64,000 nt of DNA from assembly GCF_004010195.1 (NCBI RefSeq), contig NC_057719.1, forward strand, positions 3,955,902 through 4,019,901. The letters are read 5' to 3'. Origin of the DNA: Chiloscyllium plagiosum. Lineage: Eukaryota. The position numbers and the translations under genes are program-made. Shown here piece after piece: positions 715-57,401 of this stretch; the first letter of the stretch is position 1; the number at the start of each line of letters is the position of its first letter. The notes under the pieces are model-generated. The model was not told the DNA's origin. It ran no database searches and was given only the letters and a program-made list of their open reading frames with translations.

Positions 715-1585
715 GTAAAGTTATTTAACACAATTGCACTTCTACAAACTTGTAGTTTATGACTTTGTTTATTTTGGTGCAATATCTTTACATAGCGGTA
801 GATATCCTAGTGAGGAATATTATCATTAAGCAACTGTTTCAAAATGTTCAATAGCAATAAAAGTTATCTTCAATGTTTACAAATCACTACTTGAGTCTCA
901 ACTGAACTATTCTGTCCAAATCTGAACACTGTGCTTTAGAAAGGATATCAAGGTCTTAGAGTGGGAACAGAAAAGATTCACAGAATGGTACCAGTGTTCA
1001 GAGATTTCAGCATTACATTGGTGAGATTAGAGAAGGTTATGATTGTTCTCACTGTTAATATAGTGACATTCAATATGATGAGTCACCTATTTGAAAATTA
1101 TCTAATTATCAAGTTAGCCGAACATCAGTTTCTGGGGAATGCTAGACTTTATTATTAGGAGCTGTTAACAAAATCATAACATGAGAGTTCAGTAAACACA
1201 TTTATGACAGGAAATTTTGTATTTGACAATTCCGTATTAGAATGCAACTAGTGTGGTTAAGGAGAACCAGTAGATGTAGTGTATTTAGATTATAACAGGA
1301 GCATTCAGTAAAGAGCCTTACAATTTAAAAAAAAATAAAATTAGCATCCGTGGAATTGTTTATCAGCTCAGATTGAGAATTGGTTAATGATCAGAAACCA
1401 AAGACTAGGAATAAATATATACTTTCATGTTAGTAAACTGTATCAGTGAAATACCACAAGAATGGTACTTGGGCTTCAGCTATTTACAATCAATTTGAAT
1501 GACATTTGTGAGTGTGATTATTCAAGTTTGCTGATATTTCAAAGTTGGGTGGAAACGTCAACGGTGAGGAGGATGCAAAGAGGAA

Positions 1586-3260
1586 TCACAGAATTTTACA
1601 GAACAAAAGGTGGCCATTTGACCTATTGATTCTTCTGTACTTGCTCCCAAAACAGCCACCCAGCTAGTCCCATTCTCGAGCACTACCTTCAAAGCCCTCT
1701 AAATTCAACACTTTTAAAATATATATCCAGTTCTTTTTCAAAACATCATATGGACTCCACCTCCACTCACTCTCCCAGTAAGTGCATTCCAAATCCTAAT
1801 AACTCTGAGTAATTAAGTTATTCATAGTCTCACTACCAGCTCTCTTGTTGACAATCTCAAAATTGTAACCCCTAGTTACTGACATATCAACTAGTGGAAA
1901 CAGAATTTTCTTCTTTACCCTGTCAAAATTGTTTATAACTTTGAAGGCCTCAACAAAGTCACCTCCTTAATCTTCTCTGCTCCAAGAAGAATAAGGAGAA
2001 AGTGAGCTTTGCAGATGCTGGAGATCAGAGTCTAGAGTGTGGTGCTGGAAAAGCACAGCAGGTCAGGCAGCATCCAAGGAGCAGAAGAATCGACGTTTCG
2101 GACAAAAGTCCTTAATCAGGAATGAGGTTGTGAGCCAAGGGGATGGTAAGATAAATGGGTGGAGGTTTGGGCTGGGGAAAGGTAGCTGAGAGTACGATAG
2201 GTAGATGAAGGGGGGAGGTAATGGTAATAGATCAGAAGTGTTCAACTCCCCCTTGCTTTCTGCAAAGGGCATGGAGGAGCCCCAGAACCTACATCGCCAC
2301 TCCTTAACCACCTAACGCCTGAAGGAAGAACGCCTCATCTTCCGCCTCAGGATCCCCCAACCCCATGGCATCAATGTGGATTTCACCAGTTTCCTCATTT
2401 CCCCTCTCCCCACCTCATCCCAGATCCAACATTCCAACTCAGCACCGCCCTCATGGCCTGTCCTACCTGTCCATTGTCCTTGCCACCTATCCACTCCACC
2501 TTGCCCTCTGACTTATCACTATTACCATCACCTCCATCTCCCTAACGCACTCTCAGCTACCTTCCCCAGCCCTTCAGTGCTTTTCCAGTACCACACTCTC
2601 AACTCCAAGGAGAATAAATCCAATTTTTCTAATCTTTTCTTGTTTCTAAAATCCCTCATTCTTGGTGTCATTCCATAACCCCTTTTGTGCTCTCTACAGG
2701 GCTTTAACATCCTTCCTTAAATAAAAGTGCTCAAAAGTGAACGCACTACTCCAAGTGTGGCCTGACCAATGATTTGTAGAGGTGTAGCACTTGCTTACTT
2801 GCTTTTATACTCTATATTCCTCTATTTATAAATCCAAGGGTCCTATAACCCACCTTAACAATTGTTGCAACTTGCATGGTTATCTTCAGAGAATTATGCG
2901 CATGAACCCCAAGGTCCCTCTGCTCCTCTACTCTCCTCAAAATTGCACCATTGAACCTGGATTATCTCTCTATGTTTTTTCAACAAAATTGCATTACCTC
3001 ACATTTGTCAGCATTGAAATTCACCTGTCCGGTGTCTGTCTATTTAGCCAACTTGTCAATGTTCCTCTGAAGTTACTCAGCATTATTCTCACAATTCACT
3101 ATTCTCCCTAGCTTAGTATCATCTGCAAATTTTAGAGATTTTGCCCTCAACAACCATCTTCAAACAATTTTTATAAATCAGAAAAAGCAAATGTCCCAAC
3201 ACTGATACTTGGGGAACATCACTTTCAACTCTTTTCCAATCTGAAAAATGAGAAAAAGAG
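1586..3260 (-). mobile_element. CR1 LINE 3' fragment (decayed), interrupted by a Penelope insertion
   Basis: ORF 2528-2710 has CR1 C-terminal motifs (RLEKLDLFSLE); resembles copies at ~21170-22010 (-) and ~24160-24640 (+). Confidence 0.75.
1995..2602. mobile_element. Penelope-like element remnant with inverted terminal repeat parts and a 15-bp TSD
   Basis: Flanked by ctccaagaagaataa (1980-1994) and ctccaaggagaataa (2603-2617); GIY-YIG C-terminal peptide RLKEERLIFRLRIPQPHGINVDF on +; hammerhead-like motif on - at ~2088-2123. Confidence 0.75.
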
Positions 3261-3989
3261 AGTGTGGTTTAGAACATGGCAAGTGTTTTGTGATGTGGAA
3301 AAATTACTAGATTGGCAGATATAATAGAAAATATATTTATTTTCAAATGATAAGAGATGATCTCACTGAAAGATATAGAATTCTTTAGGAGTTTGCCAGG
3401 GTAAATGCTACAAGAATATTTCACTTGGCTGGTCATCTCAGATATATGTAAGAATAATAGGGTTGTAATAGTAGGGAATGTTAACTTTCTCCAGACATAG
3501 ACTGGGACTACCATAGTGTTAAGGGCTTGGATGGTGAGGAATTTGTTCGATGTGTTCAAGAAAATTTTCTTTATTAATATGTAGATGTACCCACTAGAAA
3601 ACGAGTAAAACTACTTTCTGTTGGGAAATAAGGCCAGGGCAAGTGACTGAAGTGTTGGGGGGAACACTGTGGAATCAGTGATCATAATCCTATTAGTGTT
3701 TAAATAGTTATGGAATAGGATAGGCCTTGTATAAAAATAAAAGTTATTAATTAGAGTAAGGTGAATTTTGCTGGTATGAGACAGAAACTTTCAAGAGTTG
3801 ATTGAAGTAGACTGTTTGCAGGTAAAGGGGCGACTGGTAAGTGGGAAGTTTTCAAAATTCAGATAACCAGTTCAGAGGCATTATATTTCTGTTAGAATGA
3901 AGGGTAAAGTTGATAAAAGTAGGGAATGGTGAATGAATGAAGATATTGAAGTTCTGGTCAAAAATAAGGAGTCCTATATTGGGTATAGA

Positions 3990-5155
3990 CATAAGAACTA
4001 GGAGCAGGAGTAGGCCATTTGGCTCCTCAAGCCTGCTCCACCATTCAATATGATCATGGCTGATCTTTTCGTGGACTCAGCTCAATTTACTTGTCCCCTC
4101 ACCATATCCCTTAATTCCTTTATTGTTCAAAAAAAAAACACTATCTTAGCTTTAAAAACGTTTACTGAAGTAACGTCAACTACTTCACTGGGCAGTGAAT
4201 TCCATAGATTTACAACCTCTGGGTGAAGAAGTTCCTTCTCAATTCATTCCTAAATCTGCTCCCCCTAATTTTGAGGTTATGCCCTCTTGTCCTAGTTTCA
4301 CATGCCAGTGGAAACATCCTCTCTACTTCTATCTTATCTATTCCCTTCATAATTTTATATGTTTCTATAAGACCCTCCCCCCATTCTTCTAAATTCCAAT
4401 GAATATAATCCCAGTCTACTTAGTCTCCTTATAAGCTAACTCCCTCAACTCCAGAATCAACCTAGCGAACCTCCTCTGCACCCCCTCTAGTGACAGTACA
4501 TCCTTTATGAAGGAAGGAGACTAAAACTGCATGCAGTACTCCCAAGTGTGGCCTCACCAGCACCCTGTACAGCTGCAACATAACCTGTCTGCTTTTAAAC
4601 TCAATCCCTTTAGTAATGAAGGACAAAATTCCATTTGTCTTCCTAATTACTTGTTGTACCTGCAGACAAACCCTCTGTGATCCATACACAAGGACACCCA
4701 GGTCCCTCTGCATAGTAGCATGCTGCAACGTTTTACCATTCAAGTAATAATCCTTTTTATTGTTACTTCTACCAAAATGGATGACTTCATATTTATCAAC
4801 ATTGTATTCCATCTGCCAGACCTTTGCCCACTCATTTAAAGTATCTATGTTCCTCTGCAAAGTTTCACAGTCCTCTGCACACTTTGATCTGCCACCCATC
4901 TTAGTGTCACCTGCAAACTTTGACACACTACACGTAGTCCCCAACTCCAAACCATCTACATAAATTGTGAATAATTGTGGTCCCAACACTGATCCCTGAG
5001 GCTCACCACTAGTTACTGATTGCCAACTAGAATAACACTCATTTATCCCCACTCTTTGCTTCCTGTTAGTCAACAAATCCTCTATCAGTGCTAATACTTT
5101 AACCGTAACGCCTTGCATCCTTATCTTACGCAGCAGCCTCTTGTGCTGCACCTTC
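3990..5155 (-). mobile_element. CR1 LINE reverse transcriptase 3' fragment
   Basis: ORF 4462-5151 with [24 protein letters not shown] (decayed FADD) and RDLGV motifs. Confidence 0.9.
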
Positions 5156-5248
5156 CGAATAGTCTGATACTACTGGATATTTAATTCTCAGTTGTGACCA
5201 TCCTGTAACTATGTTGTGGTTCTGTTTGCTGAGCTGGGAATTTGTGTT

Positions 5249-5288
5249 GCAGACGTTTCGTCCCTTGTCTAGGTGACATCCTCAGTGC
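5249..5288 (-). ncRNA. Minimal type I hammerhead ribozyme motif (Penelope terminal repeat), intact
   Basis: Minus strand GCA-CTGAGGA-T-GTC(A)CCT-AGACA-AGGGAC-GAAA-CGTC-TGC: stem I GCA/TGC, 6-bp stem II, GUC cleavage site, ACGT palindrome in place of stem III. Confidence 0.8.
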
Positions 5289-5547
5289 TTGGGAGCCTCC
5301 TGTGAAGTGCTTCTGTAATATTTCCTCCGGCATTTATAGTGGTTTGTCTCTGCCGCTTCCGGTTGTCAGTTCCAGCTGTCCGCTGCCGTGGCCGGTATAT
5401 TGGGTTCAGGTCGATGTGTTTGTTGATAGAATCTGTGGATGAGTGCCATGCCTTTAGGAATTCCCTGGCTGTTCTCTGTTTGGCTTGTCCTATAATAGTA
5501 GTGTTGTCCCAGTCAAATTCATGTTGCTTGTCATCTGCGTGTGTGGC

Positions 5548-5557
5548 NNNNNNNNNN
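5548..5557. other. Assembly gap (10 N)
   Basis: Run of n bases. Confidence 1.
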
Positions 5558-5714
5558 TTCTTGATGTATGGTAACGTGGCTAGTCCTTTGGGTTGTGGCA
5601 TGTCCTCATTCCGTTGTCTTTCCCTTAGGCATCTGTTGATGAAATTGCGGGGGTATCCGTTTTTGGCGAATACATTGTAACTTCTTCCTCTTTTTGGAGT
5701 TCTGGTGAAGGTTC

Positions 5715-6190
5715 AGTAAAGATTTACTAGGATCTTGTTGGGATTGTTGGGATTGGAAGGTTTGAGTATAAGGGTAGGTTGGGACATTTTTTACAGGAGT
5801 GTAGGAGATTGAGGGGTGACCTTATAGAAGTTTATAAAATCATTAGCATCATAGATAAGGTGAATAGCAAATGTCATTTTCTTAGGGTAGGTGAGTTCAA
5901 AACTAGAGGGCATAGGTTTAAGGTGAGAGGAGAAAGATTTCAGAGAGATCTGAGGGGCAACTTTTTCACAGAGCATGGTTCATGTGTGGAATGAACTGCC
6001 AGAGAAAGTGGTAGATGCAGGTACAGTTACAATATTTAAAAGACATTGGATAGGTATATGAATAGGAAATCTTTAGAGGGAAATGGGCGAAATACAGGCA
6101 AGTGAGATTAGTTTACTTTGGGGAAACTTGGTCAACATGGATGAGTTGGACTGATGGATCTGTTTCTGTGCTGTATGACTCTGACTCAAT
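5715..6190 (+). mobile_element. CR1 LINE 3' end
   Basis: RRLRGDLIEVYKI, TRGHRFKV and NFFT motifs; ends in a ctgtatgactct-type CR1 tail. Confidence 0.88.
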
Positions 6191-6458
6191 GGTGAGTCTA
6201 CAACTAGGAGGGTGCATTATCAGAATATAAAGTTTGGAATTTTTGGAATGCGAAGCAGGACAGGATCGTGCATGATCTAAGTATGATGTGAAGTAACATT
6301 TTTCTGGTTCTGCAAATTTGAGAAGGGGTGTATGGTCCGGTTTATCATTTTGTATGGTTGGCAAATAACAGCAGAATTCATGCACATAGTAATTTTCTTT
6401 TTAGACATCACAATCTTGCAAATATTGAATTGACTAATAGTTCTTTTACTTTGCCCAG

Positions 6459-6542
6459 ATGCAACAGTATAAACATTCCACTCATCGGATTTTCAGACTG
6501 AATAATATTGCAAAGGCCCTTCAGTTTCTGGAGGAAGGATAC
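6459..6542 (+). CDS. CLMN: Calmin coding exon (MQQYKHSTHRIFRLNNIAKALQFLEEGY)
   Basis: ttgcccAG acceptor, TAC|gtaagt donor; 84 nt; HRIFRLNNIAKAL motif characteristic of calmin CH1. Confidence 0.93.
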
Positions 6543-6989
6543 GTAAGTATTTTATTTGGGGCATTGGGGCTATGTCAACAACCTTTGTTCAATTTACACA
6601 TGTCTATAGTTGAAAATAGATTTCAGTTGCCTCAGTTAACTTCATTAGTGGCTTCTGTAAAGGGTGTAACAACACTGACCACCAGACTATCCTCTGTGCA
6701 CCACCTGGTTGATTCAATGTAGGCAATGTAGATAAATGCCAACTTTACTGACTTGGGAAAACTACACATTGATCTACTGCTCCTACAATCTGGTTACTTC
6801 CCTTAATATTTAGCATTCTAACAATAAGATGTAATTGAAACTTTCAAATTTAATACTTACATTGAAATTTATGATGCATAATTGTTATTGAGGCACTGCA
6901 AATTGTGATGTGGAATCTTGATCTGAAATATCTGTCCTGTAACTGCGAATGTTTTGAATATTAACTAGCCAGTGCCTCATTGTTTGTAG

Positions 6990-11516: not shown

Positions 11517-11665
11517 ATGATTTGGAGGTGCCAGTGCTGGACTGGGGTGGACAAAGTTTAAAAATCACACCACACCTGATGAAAAGGCAGCACCTTGAAA
11601 GCTAGTGCTTCCAAATAAACCTTTTGGACTGTAACCTGGTGTTGTGTGATTTTTAAATTTGTTCC
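11517..11665. mobile_element. Short Penelope terminal-repeat insertion with an inverted 5' segment
   Basis: Inverted halves aaaaatcacac...gtgtgattttt; same repeat family as 39100-39225, 41820-41915, 45510-45600, 47782-47950 and the end of the GIY-YIG element at 50597. Confidence 0.7.
11573..11607 (+). ncRNA. Minimal hammerhead ribozyme motif (Penelope repeat), sense in a CLMN intron
   Basis: CAC-CTGATGA-A-AAGG-CAGCA-CCTT-GAAA-GCTA-GTG. Confidence 0.7.
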
Positions 11666-17100: not shown

Positions 17101-18891
17101 GTATGAGATTTGTCTGTTACTATCTGTCCAACACTATGCTATGTTTAAGCTGCTGTTCATCTGCCAGTCACTGTTAATTGAATGACTTTGGTCAACATTC
17201 ATTGTGCATATATAATAAAAATCAAAAAGAATATTTTACTATGTTGTTGTGGTTCTCCACGTTGTTTTGCTTTTGGTGGCATGTTAGAATGTAAAACAGT
17301 AGAGAACAGGAACAGGTTCTTCAGCCTGCCATGTCTACACCAAACATGATGCCATTCTGAACTAATCCCATCTGCCTGCATGGTCCACATATCCCTCTTC
17401 CCTACCTGTGTATGTGTCTATCTAAATGGCTGTTAAACTTTGCTGTCATATCTACTTGTACCACCTCCCCAGCAGTGTGTTCCAGGCATCTACCCTTCTC
17501 TGTGTAAAAGAAAATCTTGCTTATGGAGAAGATGTTTTCACTAGTAAAAGAGACCAGGACCCAAGGCGCAGCCTCAGTGAAGGGAGGACCCCTTAGAATT
17601 GAGTGAGGAGAAATTTCTTCAGCTGAAGATGGTGAATCTATGGAACGCATTGCTGCAGAGGCCTCTGGAGACCAAGTCATTGACTGTCTTTTAAGATAGC
17701 AATAGATACGTTCTTGATTAGTAAGGGGTTTAAGGGTTATGTGGTGAAGGCAGGAGCATGGGGTTGAGAAACATATCAACCATGACCTAAAACTGGAGCA
17801 GACTCAAGAGCTGAATTGCCTTATTATGCTCCTCTATTTTATGATAGACTTCTTCCTCTAAGCGCCACTGAGTACAGACTTCTTCAATTACTTGTCTTCT
17901 TCACAACCAAGGTTTGTCCAAATATGCATTGTTAGCTGTGAAGCCTCTCCATATTAATCAGCTCATGAGAAGTCTCAGTTACGTGCAGGGTAACTTGTTG
18001 CTGTTAAAACCTTAGTTTTCGGGTGAAGCCTGATTTGGATCAACAAGTCTGCCTGAGTGACACAGCAACACTGGCTAATGTCAGCAAACTTGATTGGGGT
18101 GGGCAGTGAGGCTGAACTCAAAAGGTTATAATTTGTGCCCTTTATAATTTGTGTCCTTGTCCCATTCAAGCTTTTGGTGAAAAGCTATCAGTTATGTAAG
18201 TTCTCCCAGCTGATTTTGAAAGGTCAGGGATGTGTTGGTGTGAGAATCTATAAGTGTCCTATCTCATTTATGTTTTAAGTGAGCAGAAACTAAGTGAAGC
18301 TCCTGGTTTGCCTTTTAAATATGGCATCCAAATTTTTGAGCCCAGAAAGTCCCTGCATATTTAGGAGCTTCCTGTCTATAAAATTTGGCATTTTACTTGC
18401 TTATGCATCTGTAATTAGTTGAGAAGAATATAATCTCGAGAAAATCCTGCCGCTCTGAGCAAGCCCCATTCGCCATTACACCTGTTGTCACACTTATGTC
18501 TAAAGAAAAGAAAATTCTGCCAAATAAATAATTTATGTAAAAATACTAATCGGATCACCATTTAGGCTCAATAAATTAAAGAGTAAAATACATAGTTTCT
18601 TCTTTCCAGTACTTGGCCAGACGCAAGGGTGGTGGTGAAACCAGTCACTGAGAGGTCTGTGAGAGCAGATGTACAGCAATTGCCAAATGAATCCTTTTTT
18701 CCTTTGCCTGCCAATGGAAAGAAAAGTTGGTTTCTACCAAGTGATACCTCACAAGTGATGAAAATTAAGATTTAGTCATGCCATGATATATATTATTTAT
18801 ATATTATATCGAAAACCCAATACTAGCTCCTCATCCACATTATTTAAGTTTTGTTACTATATCTAATCATTACATTTTTTATTACTGACAG

Positions 18892-20274
18892 AATGATACT
18901 GCAGAAAATGCCTATGAATCTCCATTTGAGGATTCTTGTATCAGCTTTGCAACCATGTCTTCTGATCTTAGTGCACAAGATTCCAATGTTGGAAATAAAC
19001 ATTGTGATTCAGATATTGTCTCGCCTCCGCTACAGGACTGTACAGATTTTATCCCCTCCTACCTGAAAGATGATAAATTATCTGCACAAAATGTCGTGAT
19101 GAATGACAATCAGCCATTACATGAAGAAAACGATAATTCTTTTGTTATTCAGGACAGTAGTTCTAATGAAACGGAAATGGTTACCACTAACATGGTTGAG
19201 GTTTCCAATATTGCAAAATCAAGTATGTCCTCACATCAAGATAGTCAGTTATCATCATCTGATCTGCACAATGTACTCTTACAACCCACATCTGATACCA
19301 ATGTCACTGACACGGTAGAGGAGATTTATGTCCTGCTACATCCATTGAAAAGAAAGTCTTCAAATGGTGAGAAAACACTGTTGGAAAAGAAGCCTTCCTC
19401 TCCGGAACCTTATGATTATCATTCACCAGTTGCAGCGAATGATGTATTGAAAGCTAGGTCTAGAATTGAAACACCTGAACCTTTTGCTGAAGATCAATGT
19501 GACACATCCTTGGAAATCGTCTCAGAAACCACATACTCCTCTAATAAATTAAATGAAGCTCTCAAAAGTCCACAAGATCAGTGTGTTTCTTTATACCATA
19601 TGGATACGCAATCTAATGCTAGTATGCCTGCTCGGATACGTAAAGTTTCAGAATCATGTACACAGACTGATGAAAAACCATCTTCTGAACAGAATGAGCT
19701 ATTGCCTTCAGTAATAGATAATGCACTTATGGGTGAAGAAAAAGTGTCTGTAATTCCACTTAACCTTGTTTACTATCCTCATTATGAGGTACCAGTGTCT
19801 AAGGTACTTGAAGCTTTTTCAGTTACCGGTAGTCCTCAAAAGGAACTTGTCCCAGAGTTTCAGAAAGACTTGTCACCACTGGCTGATGAAGCTTACCAGT
19901 CTTGCTCTGAGCTCAGTGGTTCTTTTTCATTGCAGGAACTTAGTCCAACATTCTCTGAAAAAACTTTGTGCACCCCTGACTCTGATCAGATTGACAGCTC
20001 GAGCATCTCTAATCATGCTGAACCTGGTAAGATTGCTCAGTCATTTTCTTCTTACCAAGGAACTGACTTGTCTCAGTTTCTGCCAGTAGCAATCCATAAT
20101 GCTGCCAACGAAAGCATTGTGAATCCTCTTAATAAGTTGCCAGATCAGCCTAACTTGGAGGCTATTAATGAACGATTTTTGGAAGAAAAACCTTCAGTGA
20201 CAAAGTCTGGAGATCTTCAGATACCCAAAAGCGAACATGAAAAGGATCAAGATGAAAACAGTCCAGGTCCAGAG
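18892..20274 (+). CDS. CLMN: Calmin large central exon (461 codons, Ser/Glu/Asp-rich)
   Basis: ctgacAG acceptor in frame with ORF 18955-20325; GAG|gtaaca donor; contains the calmin-like block KVSVIPLNLVYYPHYEVPVSKVLEAF. Confidence 0.88.
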
Positions 20275-22184
20275 GTAACAAACATTCACTACATTTGGCA
20301 CCTTGAATTGAGAGGTTCACTATGATGGTTTGTAAAGCCTTCCTACTCTCATGCAGATTACTTTCAAGGTCATATTTGCTTACAATTCAAACTTTTAACC
20401 TGCTATTGTTGGTTGCTATCCATGATTGAACTTAGAGTTTCAGAATATATTCGTTCAAATTCCATAATAGCAGTCTGAGAATTTGAATTCTGTTTTGCCA
20501 TAAATCTAGAGATAAAAATGGTAAGTTTCCAATCTCTTCAAGCTGTCTGACCATTGTGAAAACCAACTTGTTCACTTAAAGTAATATTTGAGATTGGAAA
20601 CTTACCACCCTGCTGAGTTTGGTCTACTTGCAACTCCAGGCCAAAATCATTGGGGTTGACTTGAAATTGTCCTCTGCGATGGCATAGGAAATCACTCAGT
20701 AATAACAAGATTGTCTTCCTCGTCTTTTGTATAACTGAGTAGGCCTTGAGGCCAATTAAAAGGACAGTTAAAAGTCAGACCTGCATAGTGGTACATTTTG
20801 TTGCAAAATGTACCACCTTACCTGCACAGCTAATGTGAAAGAGCAATGTCGAAGAGCAGTGAGCACTGGTATTGTTACTTATTTCTACGAATTCATCTAA
20901 CCTTCCCTGAATCCTTAAACATAAACTGGAGAATAATGGGGAGATATTCTAAATAGACTCGTGAAGAGAATGGTTACTTGGAAGAATTATTGGAGGACTG
21001 CTAGGCCATTGGTCAGCAAAATCCAGTAGTCTTTTACTCAACATTGGAGAGATTTTAGCAAGAAAAACTGTGATTTATTTTTAAATTGACAACTAATCAG
21101 AACAAGCTGCTTTGAAATGTGCCAAATTATTTCATTTTTAGTTTAATTCAGAATTTCAGAATAATATAGAATCATAGAATTTTACAATACAAGAGGAAGC
21201 CATTCGGCCCTTTGTGTCTTTACTGGCTCCTGAAAGAGCTAACTACGTAGTACCATTCTCCAGCCTTTTCTCCCTAGTTGTCAAAATTCATCACCTTCAA
21301 ATATATACTGTTTTGAAACTTGTTATGGACTCCACCTCCACCATTCTCCTGGGCAGTGTACTACAAATCCTAATCAATCTGAGTAAAGAAATTTCTCTTC
21401 ACCTAACTTGTAGCTCTCTTGCTGACAATCTTGAAATTGTAACACCTAAGTATCGAAATATCAATTAATGGAAATAGAATATCCTTCTGTACCCTTCAAA
21501 GTGGTTCATAATTTAGAACACCTCTATAAGGTCACCCCTTAATCTTTTCTGCTCTAAGGAGAATAAGGCCAATTTCCCTAACCTTTTCTTGTATCTAAAA
21601 TCTCTCATTCTGGTATCATTGTAGTAAATCTCTTTTGTACTCTGTCCAGGGCTTTAACATCCTTCCTTAAATAAGGGGCCCAGAACTGAACATAATATTC
21701 CACATTTGGTCTGACCAATGAATTGTAGGGGTATAGCATCATGTGCTTGCTCTTACACTTAAAAACTGAAGGATCCTATAAGCCGCCTTAAGAACAGTTG
21801 CAACTTGCCTAGCCACTTTCAGAGATTTATGCCCGTGAACCCCAAGGTCACTCTGCTTCTGTATTACCCTCAAACTTGTACCAGTTGAGCCTGTATTGTT
21901 TCTCAATGTTTCTTCAGTCCAAATTTGTATTACCTCACATTTCTCTGTTTTACGATTCATCTGCTAAGTGTCTGCTCATTTGGCCAACTTGTCAACCTCA
22001 ACATTGTCAACATGATGTTGTACAGAAGCTATACAGAAAAAGACATAGTTGAAAACTAGAAGCAAATTTTGATTTGGAAATGGAGAGCAGTTTAAATAAA
22101 AATCAGCAATGCACATGTTTTTGGAAGGTTTTTGATTGTGTTGCCTAGAGCTATCATAACGAGACTGATTTTCTACCTTTCCAG

Positions 22185-45959: not shown

Positions 45960-47450
45960 CTTTCAACCGGGGCCCGAGTGATACCAGTGTGGGTACCATG
46001 GGGCTTGTGTTTTTTTTTCTGTTGTTGTTGCAAACAGACACGGTAGGAAGGCAACGTCCAAGATGGCAGCTTGTGAATACGGTCTATCCGTGTGCAAGCA
46101 GCTTGTTGACCACCGCCGGCCGGAGCGCTGTCCGCCCCGTCCGACCCTAACGAGCGACGTGATTGGATCCCCTCTGCCGCCTGTGCTCCCGTGGACCAAT
46201 CGGAAATCCTGATGCATCGGGCTGGGGCCGAAAGGAGGGAGAAGGGGGCGGGGAAAAGGGAGGAAAAAGAACAGGGTGGCGAATGCGCGCGCAGCCTGCG
46301 GCCCGTCCAGGTGAAAAGGAAAGGGAGTGGAGAAGCGAGGAAGGAAAACATTTTCTTTTTAAAAAAAATATCCAGAGAGGACGGGGGTGGGTGGGATTTC
46401 AAAGAAGGCCGCGAAACGGGAAGGGAAGGAAGAATTTTTCTTTTTTTTTTAAAAAAAAGAGAACGAGTTACCTGAAAGGGGAAAGGGTGGGGTGCCGAAC
46501 AGACACCGGGCAATTACCAGCAACAGCGGCAGGGGAGGGGGAGGGGAGTTGAAAACCGTCGCCATCCTCCCGAACTCTACCTCCAACCCTCTCCCTCCCC
46601 TCAACAACAAACACACTCAATGCATCGTTACAGCCGGGGGTAAGCGACACTTCTTCTTTTCGAGACACTTCACGTCATATGTACATTTAAAACGCGCGTA
46701 TAAATATCTAATCAACGTGGTGGGGTGGGAAAAAAAGAGGAAAAAAAAACTGGTACTTGTTAATCCTTCAGACGGTTCTGCCCCTCTCCCTCTCCTCCTC
46801 CTCCTCCTCCGGCCGCGTGGCTGCGCGAGTGCCGCCAACGGCTTCCCTTTACCAGAATGTTCCGCCAGCCTCGCACGCGCGCCTCGGGCCGTTAACGGAC
46901 GCTCTCCCTCACCTCGTGTTTGAATTTTTAATTCTCTTCCCCCCCCCCCAACGCCGCGGGTGCTAAAGAGTTTGATTTTTAAAGATATTTTAATTTTCAC
47001 GTATCACCAATCACAGCCGGGGATCTTTACCCGATGTAATCTCAGTAGTTGGAGGCCTAACTGAGATTTTATTGTTCGCAGTCTTCCCCGTCTTTTTTTT
47101 TTAGAAAAGACACAGTTCTGGATATTTAAAGGTCTGGGCCTGTTAGCCTCGGAGTGGGAGTAGGTGGCTGAGGTCGCGCTGCGAGGCCTAGTGTTCAGGC
47201 TTCTGAAGCAGTCTTGCCCCGGTTCTAATTGGGATTGCTCTACATCCACACATTCTCCCCACCCACGGGGCGTCGACGTTTTTGGGGGTCGCGTGTTAGC
47301 GTTTATTAAACTCTTTGTGAGGCCATGCCGGCTAGTGATCACATCGGCTGCATCCGCAGAGGAGAAGGGAAACCGACTGCTGTCTTGAAGTTAATAGAAA
47401 CTCTCCCAGGAATCCGGTCTGCGGTGCTGCCCCCGGTGATTCTCAGCCAG
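45960..47450. promoter_or_regulatory. CpG island / TATA-less promoter, probably of DICER1 (by synteny)
   Basis: Sharp rise in GC and CpG in a CpG-depleted window; YY1-like CAAGATGGC (~46059), inverted CCAAT (gattgg 46161), CCAAT (46196, 47007), GC box GGGGCGGGG (~46245), NRF1-like TGCGCGCGCA (46284-46293). Confidence 0.8.
46290..46639 (+). other. DICER1: Putative non-coding first exon of the downstream gene (likely DICER1); 5' end uncertain
   Basis: Strong GGG|GTAAGC donor at 46640, downstream of the promoter motifs; CLMN-DICER1 tandem order in human; no coding exon seen in the window. Confidence 0.4.
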
Positions 47451-49189
47451 TTCTTCACTATCCTTCACTTGCCAAGGGTTTCACATGATAACCCATCCTT
47501 CGTTCACATCTATTTCGCCTTCCATGCCCTCAGGTTATGTCATATTCTCGTCATTTTTATCGAGTTTACTGCCCTTTGTTGAGCTTTTGTCGTCTTGTCT
47601 AACGTAGTTGTTCATTTCTTCTCAGCAGTAATGGTTTGCATTTATATAACACCAGTTAAACATCTTAAAATGCATTCTTTACAGAAGTACTTTATTTGTT
47701 TTAAAAGTTGATTAGAACCATGGAACGTATTAAGGCAGATGACTAAGTGTTCACTCAAACAAGTAGATTTTAAGGGCATGGTCAAAAATCACACCACACT
47801 GGGTCATAGTCCCAACAAATTTGCAGCTGCCTAAGGAAGGAGTTGAGGCTCCAAAAGATTGCTGTGTCACATAAACCTGTTTGAGTATAACCCGGTGTTG
47901 TTTGATTTTTGACTTTGTCCGCCCCAGTCCAACACTGGCACTTCCACATTAGAGGATATAGGCATTCAGCTTTCAGGGATTCGGCAGTTGCAGGTATAGC
48001 CACCCATAGTTGGACAAAGGAAATCAGGGGTATGCAAGTGATCAGAATCTTTCTCATTAAATTTTTGCCCGTGACCAAATCTACTATAAACATGTTTAAG
48101 CCTAACCATCATAGTCAAGCTGGTCATCTGATTTCCCATCTGAAATTCTTTCGTATTGCTGCTAGAAAAAAGTCTACTATTCATCATTCTTCTGTTACAC
48201 GGTAACTTGCGTGTTTTGCACTTGTGCGCTTTTTGCCGTGTACGATTATGTGGTTTGTGCTGTCCATGTAGCACCCTTGGTACGGGTGGAATGCTGTCTT
48301 TTTTTTACTGTATCAGTTGTATATGGTAGAAATGACAAAAAAGCTACTCTACTATTCACACATTGCACAGTGGAGCTGTTTGGAGTCCTAGTCAAAATTA
48401 ACTTAGTCTTTTTATCCCTCTTGCCAGAGGAAGCAAGTATTATTTAAAAATCATTAAGCACTTTGAGAACTTTAGTTTTGGCACAAACCTTTTGCTGTGT
48501 TGCGCAACATTAAAATTTAGCAGCATTTTGTGGAATTTTGTATAACGGAGACATTTTATTTCAAGGATAAAAAGCAAAATGCTTTAAATCCTCTATGTAT
48601 AGCAGTATCTATGGAGAAAAACGGTTTTAGGTAGATGATCTTTCATGGATGCTAGTGTTTTTTTTCTCCACGTATTCTGCCAGACCTCATGAATAATTGC
48701 TGCATTTTTTTGTTTTTATTTCAGACTTCCAAAATACACACTATTTTGTTTCTTGTGCTATTTCAAGCATGTTTGTTGGTCGACTTGGACAATTTTAAGT
48801 ATTGTACTATACTAGTCTATGCACTGAAATTAAGTGGTTCCCACAAATGTTTGTGTACTGTTTGTTTACAGTGAAGCCTGCTTGAAAACATGCAATGAAA
48901 TTGTAAAACTCTGCTTGTAGTGGGGTTTTTTCCTCCTCTTGGTCATACCACTTCTGTACCTTGAAGTAGATCAATTTTATTGATCCATTTCAGGCCAGTA
49001 GGTGTTCGTACTTGTTTTTAAAAATGCCATTATTAATGTGAAGGCTATGAATATTGTGTTTGACTGAAGCTTCCAGTGACACAGTCTTGTTCTATTTAAG
49101 ATATAGTACTGATACTCCAGGACTGGTTAGAACCTTTCAGAATATCCCAATATGTTTTATTCATTTAGGGGCTTTTCAAATGTAGTTAT

Positions 49190-57213: not shown

Positions 57214-57401
57214 CGAGGCAGCATCTGAGGAGCAGGAAAATCGACGTTTCGGGCAAAAGCCCTTCAGGGCCTCCTGATGAAGGGCTTTTGCCCGAAACAT
57301 CGATTTATCTGCTGCTTGGATGCTGCCTGAACCGCTGTGCTTTTCCAGCACCACTGTAATCTAGAATCTGGTTTCCTGCAACTGCAGTCCTTGTTTTTAC
57401 C
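57214..57401. mobile_element. Palindromic mini Penelope-repeat insertion with a 13-bp TSD
   Basis: 51-nt inverted arms at 57216-57266 and 57278-57328; flanks ttatttcctaatt (57201) and ttattttctaatt (57402). Confidence 0.78.
57272..57303 (+). ncRNA. Minimal hammerhead motif, another family (stem III palindrome mutated)
   Basis: TC-CTGATGA-A-GGGC-TTTT-GCCC-GAAA-CATC-GA. Confidence 0.55.

Follow-up and report, generated by a model that had tools for sequence, protein, structure and literature searches.

A minimal hammerhead motif, probably a passive relic, in the terminal repeat of a truncated Penelope-like element in a calmin intron of Chiloscyllium plagiosum

Minimal hammerhead ribozymes (min-HHRs) are known from the pseudo-LTRs of metazoan Penelope-like elements (PLEs) (Cervera and De la Pena 2014, PMC4209133). 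The published min-HHRs did not cleave as monomers and cleaved to a low degree as dimers and trimers (PMC4209133), and a double-hammerhead fold has been described in which stems III and I both form between copies (PMC4209133; review PMC6765202). In Drosophila virilis Penelope, helix II has a bulge and helix I has 2 bp (PMC4209133). Within the available text of that paper and two supplementary files, sharks are not named, and the text does not mention an open reading frame (ORF) stop codon within the motif. For PAc, a Poseidon element of Anolis carolinensis, the hammerhead was reported to cleave only with the element protein, and insertion in vitro did not depend on cleavage (Frangieh et al. 2024, PMC11167929). 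The motif class has thus been known since 2014, and an ORF start inside the hammerhead is already in print for the Anolis Poseidon (PMC11167929). Animal non-LTR retrozymes, which were found in the one chondrichthyan sampled, likewise carry hammerhead-bearing sequence related to Penelope pseudo-LTRs (PMC7229834; bioRxiv 10.64898/2026.07.22.740005); 1 of 9 Xenopus retrozyme dimers cleaved (bioRxiv 10.64898/2026.07.22.740005). No description of shark PLE hammerheads was found in the literature searched, although Lunse et al. (RNA Biol) may list shark examples.

We analyzed a candidate of this class in a 64,000-nucleotide stretch of the Chiloscyllium plagiosum genome, referred to below as the window. 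Positions 5249-5288 hold a minimal hammerhead motif in the 3' terminal repeat of a truncated and broken copy of a high-copy PLE. The copy lies antisense in an intron of calmin and is very probably a passive relic, with no cutting of RNA in the cell. The parts of the motif are as follows.

5249..5288, minus strand: minimal type I hammerhead motif, from its pairing and a descriptor
5288-5286 with 5251-5249, minus strand: stem I, 3 Watson-Crick pairs with no extension possible
5285-5279, minus strand: core CUGAGGA
5278, minus strand: unpaired extra base U, between 9 and 10.1
5277-5260, minus strand: stem II, with A5274 bulged
5259-5256, minus strand: GAAA
5255-5252, minus strand: C, G, U, C

Helix III is absent except for the palindrome ACGU (A15.1-C15.2-G16.2-U16.1) at 5256-5253, and the predicted cut site lies 3' of C5252, after the GUC triplet. 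Stem II consists of three contiguous pairs, the bulged A5274 and three further pairs, and its bulge-free register has two mismatches; the "6-bp stem II" of an earlier note on this DNA therefore holds for the number of pairs and not for their continuity. The G10.1-C11.1 pair is present as G5277-C5260. Every sequence trait of PLE min-HHRs that was checked was found here (core CUGANGA/GAAA/UH, extra base, G10.1-C11.1, palindrome, helices I and II). The likeness to the published class (PMC4209133) covers the type I topology, the full core, a palindrome in place of helix III, the extra base after A9, the G10.1-C11.1 pair, a short helix I with a long helix II, and occurrence in families of copies, mostly as single motifs of truncated copies. 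Unlike retrozymes, which are tandem and non-coding, the shark motif is a single copy joined to the end of an ORF, and a non-LTR retrozyme was ruled out on these grounds.

A strict descriptor (core, one extra base, stem II of at least 3 bp, palindromic stem III, UH, stem I of at least 3 bp) was drawn up after the motif had been seen, following features in the text of PMC4209133. It matched three times in the window (5285 minus, 11576 plus and 39215 minus), compared with 0 matches in 1,000 dinucleotide shuffles, and the loosest descriptor gave four window matches versus four in 1,000 shuffles. Together with the full core, the 3-bp stem I, the GUC and the ACGU, this result upholds the claim of an intact minimal hammerhead on the minus strand. 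An Rfam scan of the window returned no hammerhead model at E values up to 5 and two unrelated weak matches. The stability of the monomer fold was ordinary relative to shuffles (z = -1.03; 30 of 200 shuffles folded as well), and stem I was lost in energy folding of 58- and 116-base contexts. Both the missing Rfam match and the ordinary fold energy are expected because the motif is without helix III. Energy folding and co-folding did not return the catalytic fold, which is not diagnostic because the core contacts lie outside the energy model. A canonical type I hammerhead of the kind covered by the Rfam models was ruled out, given the lack of a closed helix III and of a curated-model match.

The same core pattern was absent from viral contigs (0 matches) and was found at 17 loci in metagenome contigs (L001-L017), none of them of the shark family. 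Pairing at the free positions gave a stem I of 3 bp or longer at 8 of the 17 loci and a stem II of 5 bp or longer at 12, with differing sequences; with look-alikes merged, the counts were 4 of 11 and 8 of 11 (p about 2e-5 each). Since just one of the 17 loci had a PLE-protein match, and a weak one, the metagenome loci support the fold of the class and not the link to PLEs. The equivalent ATG opened no frame matching PLE proteins in any of them (0/17), and locus L009 is probably due to chance.

The element copy that carries the motif, and the gap within it, are laid out as follows.

5558..5707, minus strand: end of the reverse transcriptase (RT) thumb and the RT-endonuclease linker (tblastn 84%, P0002 residues 249-292)
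5548..5557: assembly gap of 10 N, the window's sole gap, inside the element
5272..5547, minus strand: 3' end of the ORF, with the last part of the GIY-YIG endonuclease domain and about 40 more codons (tblastn 84%, P0002 residues 360-463)
5212..5248, minus strand: A/C-rich 3' end of the element; 5212, which lies 40 bases beyond the predicted cut, is an end point common to many copies of the family

The copy spans about 5707-5212 on the minus strand and is truncated and broken, with its 5' truncation point near 5707 and a frameshift near 5680; a stop-to-stop minus-strand frame runs from 5712 to 5269. A Chiloscyllium family protein (P0002) aligned at 84% to 5673-5542 and 5583-5272 (tblastn), and this ORF piece confirms the proposal that the motif sits at the end of a shark Penelope-like element. 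Past the gap, 52 residues matched 10 proteins among 14 candidates, the best six being from Chiloscyllium punctatum (87-96%). The gap takes the place of 85 family-protein codons, among them those of the GIY-YIG motif, and the two halves that flank it putatively form a single copy. The earlier note had placed the motif at the 3' end of a GIY-YIG ORF remnant. The remnant does belong to an RT-GIY-YIG family, an assignment that follows from its 84% identity to a family protein bearing the motif, but the GIY-YIG motif itself is absent from the window, and a Pfam search of the window ORF gave no GIY-YIG match and nothing informative. Among the family proteins, P0002 has an RT domain (Pfam RVT_1, E = 3.3e-6), and P0005 matched GIY-YIG weakly and below the curated cut-off (Pfam, E = 0.028), with the motif residues visible in the family proteins. 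The window copy has Lys at 5454 where family proteins keep Glu, and 5454 differs from 99% of the depth in DNA-type run X1. Its flanks are two different LINE-like pieces, and a target-site duplication sought there was not seen.

The Penelope/Poseidon clade is distinguished by the absence of a CX2-5CxxC linker zinc finger, which is present in Neptune and reduced in Nematis (PMC8557442). The RT-endonuclease linker was without Cys in P0001, P0002, P0003 and P0005, and hence has no such finger; in the C-terminal endonuclease of the family proteins, the stretch that separates the GIY half from the YIG half holds two Cys. By these motifs (a CCHH-type endonuclease and a Cys-free linker), the family fits the Penelope/Poseidon clade as that paper defines it. 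A further clade trait is a 3' end common to copies with an optional tail of 30 to 40 bases; the shark family likewise ends at 5212, with part of the sequencing records running on past that point in a common longer form.

Two codons of the element lie within the motif.

5277..5279, minus strand: ATG formed by hammerhead A9, the extra U and G10.1, the likely start codon (frame match to the N terminus of the RT ORF)
5269..5271, minus strand: stop codon (TAG) that closes the RT-endonuclease ORF, located at the top of stem II (family proteins end there)

The family proteins P0002, P0004, P0005 and P0006 and the Stegostoma model P0007 all end at the stop-codon position 5271-5269. A second frame through the motif matched residues 1-40 of P0024, the N-terminal part of a family RT protein, at 85%. 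The ATG at 5279 is the likely ORF start because P0029, a full-length relative (48% identity), aligns to the Met at that position from residue 2 onward; a further in-frame ATG is found at 5333. Since the same stretch matches both an ORF end (P0002) and an ORF start (P0024), the motif-bearing stretch is, by its coding content, the 3' terminal repeat (pseudo-LTR) of the element; a full-length DNA copy with both of its repeats was not seen. Start and stop codons thus share the same 40 bases in different frames, with the stop 8 bases past the ATG. The C-terminal signature was confined to five proteins, all from sharks (P0002 and P0004-P0007), and was absent from the other relatives compared; an open run of 42 codons has a probability of about 0.13 by chance. 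On both counts, a stop codon in the ribozyme was rejected for now as a general PLE trait. No stop codon inside a PLE hammerhead was found in the literature searched, in which coverage of subscription papers was incomplete. A far-reaching reading would be that the ribozyme is triple-coded: in a tandem transcript, a ribosome that reaches the end of one copy would melt the ribozyme and might begin anew at the overlapping AUG, such that translation would gate cleavage and couple successive copies. We regard this as a long shot.

Element sequence also forms the end of Chiloscyllium punctatum isoform models of MAP3K7, NT5DC1 and NUDT6 and of one Stegostoma gene (P0001, P0004, P0026 and P0007), two of the four ending at the stop codon within the hammerhead. 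Such gene models are possibly alternative last exons made from the element, or else gene-model artefacts.

Around the element, the long plus-strand frame of the window is 99% identical to Chiloscyllium plagiosum calmin, and the host features are as follows.

604-726 and 6459-6554, plus strand: calmin coding blocks (tblastn of P0011)
727..6458, plus strand: host calmin intron, approximate limits, with the element inside in antisense orientation

Calmin coding exons extend over 604-33625 (plus strand), and one of them, at about 18890-20300, is 1.4 kb long. At about 46000-47400, a G+C-rich stretch resembles the promoter region of another gene.

The suggestion that three hammerhead-bearing repeat families occur in the 64-kb window proved correct, and the element family of 5249-5288 is represented in it by one copy only. 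Family 2 has at least five alignable copies (11576, 41831 and 45515 on the plus strand; 39215 and 50674 on the minus strand) and a decayed sixth near 47790-47960, and family 3 comprises copies at 57274 (plus strand, with an inverted partner), 45736 (plus) and 2119 (minus) together with tail pieces. The full core is kept in four window motifs, among which the GUC triplet occurs in 5249-5288 alone; its stem II energy is -4.3 kcal/mol versus -0.7 to -1.4 kcal/mol in the other three. The stem I strands of families 2 and 3 differ from those of the 5249-5288 motif.

The family-2 motif at 11576-11607 (plus strand) has a full core and the cut triplet CUA, lies in sense orientation in a calmin intron, and is the sole intact-core motif of the window known to share the strand of the host pre-mRNA. 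In its 4-bp stem II, three pairs are changed on both sides relative to the other copies, with pairing maintained; one of them has A-U for G10.1-C11.1. An inverted piece of family 2 precedes the motif. At 57216-57328, head-to-head inverted family-3 hammerhead pieces form a long hairpin, of which the plus-strand copy has A for G16.2. An Rfam microRNA-family match at this palindrome (57232-57313; E = 0.074) was weak and was set aside as spurious.

Sequencing records were matched to 5170-5545 at 82% likeness in 4 of 24 listed runs (DNA-type X1 and X2; RNA X21 and X22). Matching contigs numbered 9,569 in X1 and 13,356 in X2, which identifies a high-copy family and agrees with the expectation of many copies genome-wide; summed contig depth was not taken as copy number. 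Loose ends at 5212 were seen in 205 contigs of X1, 213 contigs of X2 and 118 RNA reads of X21. This common end lies 68 bases into the ORF in the A/C-rich stretch, exactly where the window copy ends. Among the 40 of 124 differences listed, at least 10 positions of the window copy differ from at least 80% of X1 depth, or about 3% of 334 bases. At that divergence, the probability that 13 core positions stay intact by chance is about 0.67, so the intact core of this copy needs no selection. The bases at 5265, which is one of these 10 positions and lies in stem II, and at 5317 are private to the window copy.

X22 gave 0 matching reads, and the RNA counts come from X21 alone, about 2% of that run, which is a fragmented poly(A) single-cell library. 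Of 470 RNA reads of the family, one was at least 99% alike to the window copy. The family RNA showed an orientation bias of about 9:1. This bias was not accepted as proof of element-driven transcription, as oligo-dT priming in A-rich flanks could yield the same result. The depth of the main orientation across the predicted cut was 193, 185, 173 and 162, with no step, and there was no site at which many of the X21 molecules begin or end. Because fragmented poly(A) single-cell RNA shows cut ends poorly, the lack of a read-end pile-up is a weak test. At the cut position 5252, U in place of C was found in 30% of family RNA reads compared with 3-6% of DNA contig depth. Positions 5238, 5244, 5303 and 5318 are enriched alike, which is most simply read as expression of a single subfamily or locus; survival of RNA that cuts more slowly is a possible alternative.

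The closest described counterpart is PAc (PMC11167929). In both elements the ORF starts at hammerhead stem II, and the cut falls 26 bases after the start in PAc and 28 in the shark copy. In both, genomic copies stop within an A/C-rich stretch of the ORF start and may carry a further tail; the shark end point and its longer form parallel the two reverse-transcription starts and the tail of PAc. In both cases no RNA-seq reads end at the cut site. The start of reverse transcription lies 111-118 bases inside the PAc ORF, however, whereas the main shark end lies 68 bases in. Moreover, PAc is intact and was assayed, whereas the shark copy is truncated and frameshifted and known from its sequence alone.

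For the shark family, we infer a dimer fold and help from protein on the model of published relatives, and inertness for the window copy. Stem III would be unable to close within one copy; two copies would swap strands, so that their ACGU palindromes pair with each other and stem I joins one copy to the other. Each core would then cut 3' of the GUC in the partner copy; this probably takes a tandem transcript and assistance from the element protein. Reverse transcription probably begins on uncut RNA, within the A/C-rich stretch that lies downstream of the cut, and a start at this point may be why copies end at 5212 with the whole motif. Because stems III and I would both form between copies, a dimer partner needs the same stem I, and mixed dimers with families 2 and 3, whose strands differ, do not fit; as the sole copy of its family in the window, the motif therefore has no nearby dimer partner. 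A failure of naked RNA to cleave would be compatible with membership in the class, since published monomers were inactive and the Anolis motif cleaved only with protein.

Among the alternatives, the one that survives best is that the motif is kept for coding or for protein binding, as a start, a stop or a reverse-transcription signal, without cleavage even in full tandem elements. We consider this unlikely, with an appreciable residual chance. The 40 bases are read in two frames, and stem II seems imperfect across the family, in that G occupies 5265 in 97-99% of the record depth and 5263 does not appear among the best-supported 40 of 124 differences. The U at the cut position in 30% of RNA reads points the same way, as do Anolis catalytic mutants, which inserted normally in vitro (PMC11167929). 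On the other hand, the catalytic core is complete, the free positions of the 17 metagenome loci pair far above chance, and the Anolis motif cleaved with protein and showed C3G/G8C rescue (PMC11167929).

It is improbable that the window copy is itself active; its transcript, made either from a promoter of its own or by transcription antisense to calmin, would have to pair in trans with other family RNA and be cut at 5252. In favor of activity, no core position is lost, nor is the GUC or stem I, and stem II still forms six pairs in its bulged register with the private change at 5265. The 470 reads show that family RNA is present, mostly in one orientation, and transcription of the family at some locus may supply partners in trans. 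Against activity stand the lack of a partner in cis in the window, the incompatible stem I of the other families, the single read in 470 that resembles this copy, the absence of a read-end pile-up in X21, the ordinary monomer fold with stem I lost in longer contexts, and the inactivity of published monomers (PMC4209133). The motif had been called the best candidate for an active self-cleaving RNA here. As a ranking by sequence among the four intact-core motifs this stands, but likely activity does not: the copy is alone, antisense to calmin and scarcely represented in RNA, and its core is probably intact by youth. An origin of the motif by chance within a coding remnant is next to impossible: the missing Rfam hammerhead and ordinary fold energy would fit it, but there were no matches in 1,000 shuffles, the same architecture recurs with different stems in two other window families and in metagenome loci, and the position agrees with the published one in Penelope-like elements.

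The preferred reading remains a passive relic of a numerous family. As a single copy, the motif carries little weight. It adds a cartilaginous-fish family with young and very numerous copies, which is useful to measure selection on the ribozyme and to repeat the protein-assisted cleavage seen in Anolis. Should the stop codon, start codon and ribozyme overlap for a functional reason, this would suggest a testable role for these weak ribozymes.
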